A stretch of DNA of 6,440 bases from Candidatus Wukongarchaeum yapensis (GCA_016840425.1 JAEOSI010000133.1:1-6440); one strand, 5' to 3'; shown: positions 3,619-6,421, counted from the first letter of the stretch. Notes: generated by a model not told the origin, from the letters alone. Program-made: numbers and translations.

Positions 3619-4650
3619 TTATCTGAAAGGTTCGATTATTACTTTGAGGGAGTCTTCGGCTTTTGCAACGAGTTTGAAGCCTAGACCTGCTTCTGCTAAA
3701 CTTAATCTGTGTGTGATCATGTCATTAACTTTCACTCTGCCAGCTCTGATTAGTTCTATTGAGGTTGTGATGTCAACGGGGCTGGCGCCGTATGAGGTTG
3801 TTAACGTAATTTCTTTTCTCCACATATCGTTAAGGGGTACTGGAACTTTAACACCGGGTTCAGGTACGGCAAAAAACAGGATTGTGCCTCCTCTATCTAT
3901 TGATTGTAATGCGGTAGTTGTAGCTGGAAGGGCTGCCGTGCACACTAATACTTTATCGGCAAGCCTGTTATCGTTTACTTCTCGGATGCGTTCAGGCACA
4001 TTTAATTCCTGTTTTGCGTCGATGATCTCGTTTGCTCCAAAATTTTTAGCTGCTTTTAGACGATATTCGTTAACGTCAGATGCTATAATTTTTGTTGCAC
4101 CGAGTGTGTGGGCTAGTTGTATGTGTAGGATGCCGGAGATGCCGCTTCCTATGACGAAAACGGTGTCGCCTGGTTTTATCTGTGCTGCTCTTTGTCCACG
4201 CACACAACAAGCTAATGGTTCGATGAAAGTTCCATCCTCATAAGACATATCATTCGGTAGGAGATACACGCCTCGGTCTACGTTTATTCGGGGCACCCTG
4301 ATGTACTCAGCGAAACCGCCAGGGTCAAAGTTAGTTGTGTGTAAAGTCTCACACGCGGTGTGATGACCGCTTAGACAATAGCGGCAAGTATTGCACGGCA
4401 CGTGATGGGATACGAAGACCCTGTCACCAACTTTGTAATGCTTAACACCTTCTCCGACTTCAACAATCTCCCCCGTCATTTCATGACCAAGCACTCTGGG
4501 TGCCGTTTTTACCCGGTACCATTCCATGACATCGCTGCCGCAAATACCGCAAGCCATCGCTTTTACCAGTAGTTCTCCCAGGCCGGTTTTTGGTTTCGGC
4601 ATCTCCTCTAGTCTTACATCGTTATTATTGTAGTACATTGCTACGCGCAC
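3619..4650 (-). CDS. Zn-dependent medium-chain dehydrogenase (sorbitol/threonine dehydrogenase-like MDR), probably NAD-dependent
   Basis: Catalytic Zn motifs GICGSD and GHE, structural Zn motif CNTCRYCLSGHHTAC, EPLAC, and a Rossmann GSGISG followed by ASD (the Asp suggests NAD over NADP). The likely start is GTG at 4650 (MRVAMYYNNNDVRLEEM, 343 aa), 8 nt after the SD AGAGGAG at 4659-4665. The listed start at 4722 adds AT-rich intergenic sequence. Confidence 0.9.
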   Translation of the reverse strand: MRVAMYYNNNDVRLEEMPKPKTGLGELLVKAMACGICGSDVMEWYRVKTAPRVLGHEMTGEIVEVGEGVKHYKVGDRVFVSHHVPCNTCRYCLSGHHTACETLHTTNFDPGGFAEYIRVPRINVDRGVYLLPNDMSYEDGTFIEPLACCVRGQRAAQIKPGDTVFVIGSGISGILHIQLAHTLGATKIIASDVNEYRLKAAKNFGANEIIDAKQELNVPERIREVNDNRLADKVLVCTAALPATTTALQSIDRGGTILFFAVPEPGVKVPVPLNDMWRKEITLTTSYGASPVDITTSIELIRAGRVKVNDMITHRLSLAEAGLGFKLVAKAEDSLKVIIEPFR

Positions 4651-4727
4651 AATGAACTCTCCTCTAGCATGTTTAAAAAAAGAGATTTTATTGTGGTTTA
4701 AAAGTTTAAAAGATTTATACAAGTTAC

Positions 4728-5519
4728 CTATTTTTCTTGGCTTTTTAGGCTTTTTAACAGTTCAAGGGCTTCGTCTGGTGTGTAGTTCTCTTGGACTATG
4801 GAGCGGACAGCTTGAATCATTGCTGCGGGTGTTTCGGATTGAAAGATGTTTCTTCCCATGTCTACGCCCATTGCACCTGCTTGAACAGCGTTATAGGCGA
4901 GTTTTAATGCATCAGGCTCTGGTATTTTTTTGCCACCCGCAATAACTATGGGAACAGGGCACCCTTCCACCACTTTTTCAAAGTCTTCGCAGTAATAGGT
5001 TTTCACCATGTGTGCTCCAAGTTCTGCGGCGATACGAGTGGCCAAACCAAGATAACGGGTGTCACGCACCATCTCCCTACCCACAGCTGTGACCGCTAAA
5101 ACAGGAATACCATACTCTTCGCCCTGATTAACCAGTTCTGATAGACTTAATAATGTTTGTCTCTCGTTGGGAGCACCTACAAATATTGAAAGAGCTACCG
5201 CAGAAGCGTTTAGACGGATAGCTTCTTTCATCGAAGTAGTGATTCCCTCATTGGACAAATCCTCTTTAAGTACACTAGTTCCGCCAGATACTCTGAGCAC
5301 GATTGGCTTTGAGATGCCCGTATCTACCGAGGTGCGTAAAACGCCTCGGGTGATCATCACAGCATCAGCATATGAAACCAGTGGCGCAATCGTTTCTCCA
5401 GGTTTTCGCAATCCGGTTGTAGGTCCTTGAAAATACCCATGATCCACAGCAAGCATTACAGTATGGCCTGTTTTTGGATTAATTATTCTTGACATACGAT
5501 TCTTCATTCCCCAATCCAT
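4728..5519 (-). CDS. lsrF: LsrF-like 3-hydroxy-5-phosphonooxypentane-2,4-dione thiolase (DhnA-type class I aldolase fold)
   Basis: It closely matches E. coli LsrF as I recall it: DWGMKNRMSRIINPKTGHTVMLAVDHGYFQGPTTGL, ATRIAAELGAHMVKTYY (catalytic Lys), GCPVPIVIAGGKK and GVDMGRNIFQS. It lacks the roughly 30-aa N-terminal extension of the enterobacterial protein. The SD AGGTGGT is at 5528-5534. Confidence 0.88.
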   Translation of the reverse strand: MDWGMKNRMSRIINPKTGHTVMLAVDHGYFQGPTTGLRKPGETIAPLVSYADAVMITRGVLRTSVDTGISKPIVLRVSGGTSVLKEDLSNEGITTSMKEAIRLNASAVALSIFVGAPNERQTLLSLSELVNQGEEYGIPVLAVTAVGREMVRDTRYLGLATRIAAELGAHMVKTYYCEDFEKVVEGCPVPIVIAGGKKIPEPDALKLAYNAVQAGAMGVDMGRNIFQSETPAAMIQAVRSIVQENYTPDEALELLKSLKSQEK

Positions 5520-5548: not shown

Positions 5549-5761
5549 TTATTTTTCAGGTCTAACTATCAAATATCCTTTATCGATAAGCCAGTGATGA
5601 AATTGATAAGTCGTATATTTACACGCGGTTTTACAAATATTTCTGATTCTTTCGTACTCTTCAGAACCTTCTTCCTGGGCGTCCAAATCTAACTGAACCG
5701 GACATTTTACATCTTTACAAAACTCTCTTCTTTGATAATCCACGTAACCCGGAATTGACAT
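5549..5761 (-). CDS. Small hypothetical Cys/His protein (70 aa), putative metal-binding
   Basis: MSIPGYVDYQRREFCKDVKCP...ICKTACKYTTYQFHHWLIDKGYLIVRPEK, with C15-x4-C20, C43-x3-C47 and H55/H56. It is co-oriented with lsrF and ends 29 nt before it. It follows a BRE-TATA element. ATG at 5761 is preferred over GTG at 5773. Confidence 0.75.
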   Translation of the reverse strand: MSIPGYVDYQRREFCKDVKCPVQLDLDAQEEGSEEYERIRNICKTACKYTTYQFHHWLIDKGYLIVRPEK

Positions 5762-6010: not shown

Positions 6011-6421
6011 TTAGTCTGAGAAGGCTAATTTGACATCTTTGTCGAAAAGTAAATATCCTAGTATTATGAGTCCTATAACTACTCCTGCGACAGATCCGTA
6101 TGTTTCGGATTCCAAGCCTATAAGATATAGTTGGTAAGCACTAAAAACAATAACTGCAAGAGTTATTAATATTCCTAATGCCCTAGCCCACGATAGGGTA
6201 AGCCAGAAACCTATAGCCATAAGGAGGGCGAAAATACCTATAGCGATAGTTACATAACCTGCGTTCTTTATATCAGATTCGGTTACGTCTTCTATTTCTT
6301 CGGCGATTCCTGAAGGATCATCAATCATCATGGCTCCTACAGCTAAAAGAAATAGTGCGACTAGGAATCCTAATATGGATATTATGGTTATTCCTGCTGG
6401 CCTTGCATATTTAACTCCCAT
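6011..6421 (-). CDS. Hypothetical four-helix membrane protein
   Basis: 136 aa with four hydrophobic segments, an N-terminal RPAGITIISIL motif and an acidic loop (DDPSGIAEEIEDVTESD) between TM1 and TM2. A strong SD, AAGGAGGT, is at 6429-6436. Confidence 0.85.
   Translation of the reverse strand: MGVKYARPAGITIISILGFLVALFLLAVGAMMIDDPSGIAEEIEDVTESDIKNAGYVTIAIGIFALLMAIGFWLTLSWARALGILITLAVIVFSAYQLYLIGLESETYGSVAGVVIGLIILGYLLFDKDVKLAFSD

Follow-up and report, generated by a model that had tools for sequence, protein, structure and literature searches.

Organisms that hold radical S-adenosylmethionine (SAM) enzymes all must dispose of 5'-deoxyadenosine. One described route, the dihydroxyacetone phosphate (DHAP) shunt for 5-deoxyribose disposal, employs MtnP (or MtnN together with MtnK/DrdK), MtnA/DrdI, and the class II aldolase Ald2/DrdA; the alcohol dehydrogenase of this shunt acts on the aldehyde. 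In most anaerobes that possess MtnA without either the aldolase or oxygen-dependent methionine salvage, we know of no established fate for the sugar. Here we describe a candidate for such a function, a two-gene cassette in a 6,440-nucleotide stretch of DNA from Candidatus Wukongarchaeum yapensis (GCA_016840425.1 JAEOSI010000133.1:1-6440; the whole stretch is called the window). The cassette joins a gene for an enzyme resembling LsrF, of the autoinducer-2 (AI-2) pathway, to a gene for a zinc-dependent medium-chain dehydrogenase/reductase (MDR).

LsrF itself was reportedly shown by Marques et al. in 2014 (cited in PMC11442133) to be a coenzyme A (CoA)-dependent thiolase. In the Escherichia coli protein, Asp57 is the general base and Lys203 forms the Schiff base, and the phosphate site is made up of His58, Gly226, Gly227, Gly253, and Arg254 (Diaz et al. 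2009, PMC2728841). Asp251 is specific to LsrF, its place being taken by Ala in fructose-bisphosphate (FBP) aldolase and in 2-amino-3,7-dideoxy-D-threo-hept-6-ulosonate (ADH) synthase; the catalytic Tyr of those two enzymes is absent from E. coli LsrF (PMC2728841).

The best explanation of the cassette, to which we give somewhat better than an even chance, is that it oxidizes and then thiolytically cleaves deoxypentulose phosphates formed from SAM by-products. An MtnP-type phosphorylase and the MtnA isomerase would turn 5'-deoxyadenosine or methylthioadenosine (MTA) into 5-deoxyribulose 1-phosphate or 5-methylthioribulose 1-phosphate, in this organism probably after deamination. The MDR, with NAD+, would oxidize 5-deoxy-D-ribulose 1-phosphate, and perhaps 5-methylthioribulose 1-phosphate as well, at the secondary alcohol on C4. 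The product would be a β-diketone phosphate, 3-hydroxy-2,4-pentanedione 5-phosphate, which is the known substrate of LsrF. Finally, the LsrF-type enzyme, through a Schiff base at Lys173 and with CoA, would cleave the diketone phosphate to DHAP and acetyl-CoA (or methylthioacetyl-CoA). The net reaction would be 5-deoxyribulose 1-phosphate + NAD+ + CoA → DHAP + acetyl-CoA + NADH, with no free aldehyde.

This chemistry (C4 oxidation of 5-deoxyribulose 1-phosphate to the LsrF substrate, then cleavage to DHAP and acetyl-CoA) was put forward in a preliminary description of the window, and it is sound. We found the LsrF-MDR route in no paper. Full-text literature searches returned nothing that connects LsrF with 5-deoxyribulose, or a thiolase with the DHAP shunt, and among the matches listed for LsrF with methylthioadenosine nothing was relevant; the literature joining 5-deoxyribulose, a dehydrogenase, and acetyl-CoA describes only the canonical E. 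coli DHAP shunt.

The two enzymes of the cassette

Both open reading frames (ORFs) are intact on the minus strand, and the LsrF-type gene (5519..4728) lies directly upstream of the MDR gene (3619..4650), as first described. The intervening distance is 77-89 nt, depending on which of two MDR starts (4650 or 4638) is used. The spacer on the same strand (4651..4727) is A+T-rich, and contains a TATAAAT-like box, an oligo-T run, and a GGAG sequence before the GTG start.

The LsrF-type protein (263 aa, predicted class-I-aldolase fold) scores 414.7 bits against the NCBIfam equivalog NF006081 (3-hydroxy-5-phosphonooxypentane-2,4-dione thiolase; cut-off 297), and 417.7 bits in a search of the whole genome. 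It matches the LsrF structures 3gkf/4p2v in the Protein Data Bank (PDB) with E=3e-94, and its identity to E. coli LsrF is 56% across 259 columns. All nine markers in the active and phosphate sites are kept: residues D26, H27, K173, Y175, G195, G196, D220, G222, and R223 are the counterparts of E. coli D57, H58, K203, Y205, G226, G227, D251, G253, and R254. These nine are invariant in 70/70 homologues. The preliminary description had allowed that the protein might instead be an aldolase acting on FBP or 6-deoxy-5-ketofructose 1-phosphate (DKFP); the genome's own AroA' paralogue (contig C54) carries Ala at the Asp251 position, whereas the window protein keeps the Asp, which places it with LsrF. 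It is best described as a putative CoA-dependent thiolase, CoA dependence being presumed for this clade.

Homologues of the LsrF-type protein are 257-290 aa in length. The window protein is a "short" form without the N-terminal domain-swapped segment of ~31 residues: its match begins at position 32 of the NF006081 profile, and just 7 in-frame codons are open upstream of its start. Identities among archaeal and bacterial members span 57-97% (median 67%), and these members are interleaved in the tree, which argues that the cassette moves horizontally as a unit. The canonical LsrF clade (support 100/99) falls inside the MDR-paired radiation, beside the window's clade; this placement is weakly supported (86/70), and the outgroup branch is very long. 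The tree therefore offers a hint, and only a hint, that the LsrF of lsr operons arose within the MDR-paired radiation.

Fusions of LsrF-type sequence with MDR, radical-SAM, or CoA-transferase sequence occur as singletons in which the LsrF part ends near residue 200, without Asp220 and Arg223. These were treated as deletions or as assembly or gene-calling artifacts, and rejected as Rosetta-stone evidence. A full-length fusion with a short-chain dehydrogenase/reductase (SDR; P0140) is present on one long-read contig only.

The MDR ORF ends at 3619, and its longest frame opens at TTG 4722. The protein probably starts at GTG 4650 (343 aa; GGAG 7 nt upstream) or ATG 4638 (339 aa), and gene callers on near-identical contigs likewise give 343 or 339 aa. 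The protein contains ADH_N and ADH_zinc_N domains but passes the cut-off of no curated family: the best, Tdh (TIGR00692/NF003808) and IolM (NF041097), match at 180-182 bits against cut-offs of 380, 458, and 450. Its nearest solved structures are ketose reductase and the sorbitol, threonine, butanediol, and galactitol-1-phosphate dehydrogenases.

With residues counted from the ATG, three sets of MDR positions are each kept in 47-48 of 48 orthologues: the catalytic zinc ligands C33, H52, E53, and E140; the structural zinc lobe C82/C85/C88/C96; and the Rossmann motif G164xG166xxG169 together with D188, at the end of β-strand 2. D188 indicates preference for NAD, and the enzyme probably is NAD-specific. 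The conserved basic residues are R42, R114, R147, H78, H79, H310, and K332. Overall the MDR is of the secondary-alcohol or polyol type, close to the polyol and threonine dehydrogenases, and we infer its substrate and regiochemistry. An NAD-type, secondary-alcohol-type MDR, a strict LsrF-type active site, and the analogy with threonine dehydrogenase and its partner ligase (see below) together fit a route of oxidation followed by thiolysis.

Conservation of the pairing and its probable link to SAM salvage

The pairing was surveyed in the 80 best LsrF-like loci from GTDB, taking one genome per species. An MDR gene lies on the same strand within 3.4 kb of the lsrF-like gene at 70 of these cross-phylum loci, and within 400 nt at 60 of them. 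Both orders occur: LsrF precedes MDR at 46 loci, and follows it at 24. Ten loci have no adjacent MDR, but six or seven of those genomes encode one elsewhere. A separate sample of Omnitrophota gave an LsrF-type gene in 44/151 genomes, with an MDR on the same strand within 3 kb at 40/40 loci examined. Paired lineages include the Asgard archaea, Thermoplasmata, DPANN, Nitrososphaeria, Desulfobacterota/Myxococcota, Omnitrophota, Planctomycetota, Acidobacteriota, and other phyla; across them, the lsrF-like and MDR genes are the only ones common to the loci. Pairwise identities of the two proteins correlate modestly (r=0.43), a value reached in 0/500 permutations. The pairing, which the preliminary description knew from one locus, is conserved in other genomes far beyond chance.

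The arrangement varies in some lineages. One Omnitrophota locus (L119, 8806-10584) has a gene for GTP-type phosphoenolpyruvate carboxykinase between MDR and lsrF-like, and another (L121, 6240-8015) has an ORF of matching size at the same position. In L113/L114, LemA and M48 peptidase genes are inserted, and a radical-SAM/SPASM gene and a rubrerythrin gene lie just upstream. The lsrF-like gene of Nitrososphaeria usually is paired with a divergent MDR (31-41% identical to that of the window), not with lsr genes.

Some neighborhoods connect the cassette to the enzymes expected to supply it. At eight DPANN-type loci, mtnA (TIGR00512) lies upstream of the pair, directly so in several, and six of these share the order apt (reverse), mtnA, lsrF-like, MDR, mtnP (reverse). 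Equivalog cut-offs are passed by mtnA (TIGR00512), mtnP (TIGR01694), and apt in the DPANN locus that was scored (L015). Independently of DPANN, a locus from a Thermoplasmata metagenome-assembled genome (MAG; L035) has mtnA (TIGR00512, over cut-off) upstream of the pair. In the Omnitrophota genome G232, the cassette belongs to a tight, co-directional string: SDR, B12-radical-SAM, a 296-aa protein of no known function, methyltransferase-like, mtnA-like, class II aldolase, aldehyde dehydrogenase (ALDH), lsrF-like, MDR, and RlmN. Radical-SAM genes (B12-radical-SAM and RlmN) thus flank it on both sides. A second Omnitrophota genome, G222, has an mtnA-like gene on the same strand 1 kb from lsrF-like. 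The copy beside the cassette in G232 and G222 is a shorter MtnA-like paralogue (~310-330 aa; 195-240 bits, below the MtnA cut-off), present at G232:C1:475624-476517 and in ~20 other Omnitrophota genomes, where it coexists with canonical MtnA.

Phylogenetic profiles point in the same direction. MtnA passes its cut-off in 48/51 pair-holding genomes, the acireductone dioxygenase (ARD) of canonical methionine salvage is present in 1/51, and class II aldolases of the MtnB/Ald2/DrdA family are present in 10/51, as against 11/14 control genomes. Therefore, ~80% of holders are without a known consumer of the MtnA product. Within the Omnitrophota, MtnA is found in 44/44 LsrF-positive and 79/107 LsrF-negative genomes (Fisher p=4e-5, with no correction for kinship or completeness). 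The anticipated link to mtnA and mtnP is seen in the neighborhoods, and that to mtnA in the profiles also.

Five DPANN-type genomes of 1.0-1.5 Mb (G007, G011, G013, G017, and G034; loci L009, L013, L015, L019, and L036) encode a full-length bacterial-type Dxs (~840 bits). Several of these MAGs are labeled Methanosarcinales, yet their gene order is that of Woesearchaeota loci, which suggests mislabeling.

The genome containing the window has part of the expected supply. An MTAP/MTIP-like phosphorylase (below cut-off) adjoins a deaminase of the MTA/5'-deoxyadenosine type, an arrangement that resembles the Methanocaldococcus route. A MAG of the same genus (G051) has mtnA adjoining apt (L097, G051:C55:1-7000), and contig C120 of the present genome aligns at 89% identity to that region but stops ~250 bp before apt. 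From this synteny, mtnA most likely was lost in an assembly gap. The archaeon also has a cluster of asd, aroA' (ADH synthase), and aroB' (dehydroquinate synthase II) (L002, G000:C54:17263-21036); by its gene content, it uses the DKFP route to aromatic amino acids.

Several findings weigh against a role in SAM by-product salvage. Within this genome, a profile search of the 92%-complete assembly found no true mtnA; the only IF-2B-family gene resembles ribose-1,5-bisphosphate isomerase, and stands beside RuBisCO III; and a class II aldolase is encoded elsewhere (C202), the cassette itself having none. The related G051 (87% complete) has mtnA and is without the cassette. More broadly, MtnA is common anyway, being present in 74% of the Omnitrophota and 73% of the Asgard genomes that have no LsrF; adjacency to mtnA was seen in only ~4 independent lineages among some 120 loci; and neighbors in Deltaproteobacteria-type, most Omnitrophota, Thermoplasmata, and Nitrososphaeria loci are housekeeping or unrelated genes. 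Among Asgard genomes (n=41), class II aldolase occurs in 7/11 LsrF-positive and 22/30 LsrF-negative members and so is not complementary to LsrF, and the G232 operon holds both aldolase and ALDH beside the cassette. The MDR substrate and regiochemistry, the CoA dependence, and the direction of flux are assignments drawn from comparative genomics. (The IF-2B gene is convergent with the type III RuBisCO gene [L083, G000:C192:2308-6132], and represents the archaeal pentose-bisphosphate module for AMP and nucleosides.)

These counts also modify what had been proposed. Plain displacement of the class II aldolase is supported across phyla, where 10/51 holders have one, but fails in the Asgard archaea and in the present genome; and the G232 operon, with both aldolase and ALDH, indicates that the cassette is not simply an aldolase substitute. 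It may instead be a parallel branch, perhaps one that divides two substrates with the aldolase. Of the route first envisaged, then, comparative genomics strongly favors the core (pairing, active site, and link to mtnA), and speaks against two extensions: replacement of the aldolase everywhere, and 1-deoxyxylulose 5-phosphate (DXP) as a substrate. DXP is disfavored as a general substrate because Dxs is over cut-off in only 25/51 holders, and none was found in this genome.

Competing explanations

The main rival is a non-oxidative, class I version of the DHAP shunt, in which the LsrF-type protein would act as an aldolase on 5-deoxyribulose 1-phosphate or its methylthio analogue to give DHAP and (methylthio)acetaldehyde, and the MDR would reduce or oxidize the aldehyde. 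The fold is indeed that of class I aldolases, complete with the lysine for the Schiff base and an Asp as general base, many MDRs are aldehyde reductases, and the association with mtnA and mtnP would be the same. Against this, the protein keeps the LsrF-specific Asp251 and shares 56% identity with an enzyme whose annotation is CoA-dependent thiolase; E. coli LsrF lacks the catalytic Tyr of FBP aldolase and ADH synthase (PMC2728841). The nearest relatives of the MDR are polyol, threonine, and butanediol dehydrogenases rather than primary-alcohol dehydrogenases, and in G232 the class II aldolase and ALDH beside the cassette already fill both roles. We consider this rival unlikely.

We think it equally unlikely that the chemistry of dehydrogenase and thiolase is as proposed but the phosphosugar is unrelated to SAM by-products, making the co-occurrence of MtnA incidental. 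Candidates would include another 1-deoxy or 5-deoxy pentulose phosphate, ribulose 1-phosphate (yielding glycolyl-CoA), and spontaneously formed diketone phosphates. Indeed, mtn genes are missing from the surroundings of most loci, these phyla commonly have MtnA in any case, and this genome has ribose-1,5-bisphosphate isomerase and RuBisCO III. LsrF homologues elsewhere also adjoin other possible suppliers, in settings that look catabolic and lack a complete lsr system. In a Sagittula plasmid (L092), an ABC importer, a SorC-type regulator, a GlpD-like FAD dehydrogenase, and an FGGY kinase accompany lsrF and a class II aldolase; in Parabacteroides (L093), lsrF follows DhaK/DhaL; and in the Asgard genome G089 (L098, G089:C36), the set is FGGY kinase, class II aldolase, MDR, SDR, and lsrF. 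Across these contexts, LsrF is repeatedly accompanied by a dehydrogenase or kinase that could produce the diketone phosphate. (A genuine lsr operon is present on Lacticaseibacillus plasmids.) What argues for SAM by-products nonetheless is recurrence: a DPANN clade, a Thermoplasmata MAG, and two Omnitrophota genomes all have the cassette beside mtnA or a gene resembling it, joined in DPANN by mtnP and apt, and 48/51 and 44/44 pair holders encode MtnA. The absence of Dxs from half of the holders excludes DXP as the general substrate.

The pair might instead work in a biosynthetic direction, condensing acetyl-CoA with DHAP and reducing the product to a deoxypentulose phosphate, or supplying DKFP to AroA'/AroB'. 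The LsrF reaction is formally reversible, this genome uses AroA'/AroB' (C54 cluster), and, to our knowledge, no source of DKFP is well established for most organisms. But AroB' is present in only 9/51 pair holders, which disfavors DKFP supply, and DKFP is not a β-dicarbonyl. Bacteria that hold Dxs already make DXP, and we know of no need for DXP-type compounds in the archaeal holders; moreover, the NAD-type Asp188 of the MDR is typical of catabolic oxidation. Biosynthesis thus seems decidedly improbable.

Genuine AI-2 processing, or quenching of quorum signals by consumption of phosphorylated 4,5-dihydroxy-2,3-pentanedione (phospho-DPD), is favored by the database name and by a published survey that lists the lsrF homologue of ammonia-oxidizing archaea as an AI-2 quorum-sensing gene (PMC11442133), but can be rejected with near certainty: the cassette partner is a dehydrogenase; no FGGY kinase, hence no LsrK, was found in the whole 2.16-Mb, 92%-complete genome, nor any match to E. 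coli LsrG, so that no lsrK/lsrG set was found; neither the window nor a near-identical strain's 45-kb contig contains an lsr transporter or regulator gene; and among 50 other holders, 41 gave no match to LsrK and the other 9 gave only generic FGGY kinases (<=33% identity), with no LsrK orthologue.

Oxidation and thiolysis of SAM-derived deoxypentulose phosphates therefore remains our preferred reading. More tentatively, and with rather less than even confidence, we suggest a widespread oxidative-thiolytic branch for SAM by-products in anaerobic archaea (Asgard, DPANN, Thermoplasmata, and ammonia oxidizers) and bacteria, of which the enterobacterial LsrF would be a late offshoot, and in which a small cysteine protein, described next, would be a functionally required third component in some lineages.

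Genomic setting and comparison with known systems

An ultra-conserved gene for a 70-aa, four-cysteine protein precedes lsrF in a subset of lineages, a feature new here. In the window it occupies 5549..5761 on the minus strand, and ends 29 nt before the lsrF-like start. The protein gave no Pfam or NCBIfam match. Its family comprises 719 clusters from archaea and bacteria, all "hypothetical," and the ESM Atlas cluster has 1908 members; the best 120 of the 719 are 78-91% identical to the window copy. Invariant residues are C15, C20, C43, C47, H55, and W57, and the window protein carries an FHHW motif. An AlphaFold2 model (mean pLDDT 52.7) was too poor for a fold search.

The position of this gene is also conserved. 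It is directly upstream of lsrF-like in loci L004, L070, L100, L124, L127, L131, and L138; and for four family members chosen solely by the extent of their contigs, all 5/5 places show it directly upstream of lsrF-like, followed by MDR. It is found in only 3/51 pair-holding genomes, all three Asgard, and therefore is an accessory component, a third cassette gene in some lineages.

The window is an entire 6.44-kb contig (C132) of a 2.16-Mb archaeal MAG (277 contigs; 92% complete), and the nearest named relatives of its proteins are from Asgard archaea (Jordarchaeia/Freyarchaeota, Promethearchaeota). Every gene lies on the minus strand. A gene for a small membrane protein (6421..6011) precedes the 70-aa gene. 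Beyond the MDR gene, domain searches identify a HEAT-repeat protein, a Clp1/Grc3-type polynucleotide-kinase-like P-loop protein (1477-2796), and then an ATPase with a C-terminal ArsR-like winged helix-turn-helix (1-1191). No lsr gene is present in the window and the flanking genes are unrelated, confirming the initial observation.

The gene order is the same in near-identical contigs of other samples, the longest of them 45 kb. There, NurA-like and HerA-like (DUF87) genes continue after the ATPase gene, and the wider flanks also contain MscS channels and an AsnC regulator, and no lsr, mtn, or sugar genes. The flanks consist of unrelated genes, and the cassette therefore stands alone in this organism.

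If the proposal is correct, the cassette would fill a gap in the disposal of the 5'-deoxyadenosine sugar for a large part of the uncultured archaea and bacteria, through a compact conversion of a deoxypentose phosphate into two central metabolites. It also would provide a testable function for thousands of genes annotated as "autoinducer-2 aldolase/thiolase," and suggest an origin for the AI-2 enzyme LsrF. The four-cysteine protein represents an unstudied family with a precise genomic address.

Among known systems, the closest at the level of sequence is LsrF of E. coli and Salmonella (PDB 3GKF, 3GLC, 4P2V). The likeness includes 56% identity, passage of the equivalog cut-off, and the nine markers with Asp251 among them; the chemistry probably is the same, a Schiff-base-assisted retro-Claisen cleavage with CoA to DHAP and acetyl-CoA. 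The window protein differs from the E. coli enzyme in lacking the domain-swapped N-terminal segment of the decamer. Unlike the lsr operon, the cassette has no LsrK, LsrG, LsrR, or LsrACDB; its partner is a zinc dehydrogenase and, here, the 70-aa Cys4 protein; and most of its holders are anaerobic archaea or members of uncultured bacterial phyla.

AroA' (MJ0400) and archaeal class IA FBP aldolase share with the LsrF-type protein a DhnA/DeoC-type TIM barrel, a Schiff-base lysine, and a phosphate site. The true AroA' paralogue in this genome is 40% identical to it. The LsrF-type protein nonetheless scores only 190 bits on the AroA' profile (TIGR01949) and 135 bits on that of FBP aldolase, as against 299 and 430 bits, and has Asp rather than Ala at the LsrF-specific position.

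The DHAP shunt resembles the proposed route in its input (5-deoxyribulose or methylthioribulose 1-phosphate from MtnA) and in making DHAP; some lineages have the cassette clustered with mtnA, mtnP, and apt. The proposed route would differ in using oxidation and CoA thiolysis instead of aldol cleavage, and so in yielding an acyl-CoA and NADH instead of a free aldehyde. The protein families also differ: an MDR and a class-I-aldolase fold, as opposed to a class II aldolase.

The nearest parallel in logic is L-threonine 3-dehydrogenase (Tdh) acting with 2-amino-3-ketobutyrate CoA ligase (KBL). The second enzyme of that pair uses pyridoxal phosphate, whereas the cassette has a lysine Schiff-base TIM barrel and would act on a phosphosugar; Tdh is the best-scoring curated family for the cassette MDR, yet at 182 bits against cut-offs of 380 and 458. 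As Tdh does, however, the cassette MDR would oxidize a secondary alcohol to a β-dicarbonyl compound, which a second enzyme then splits with CoA to release acetyl-CoA.

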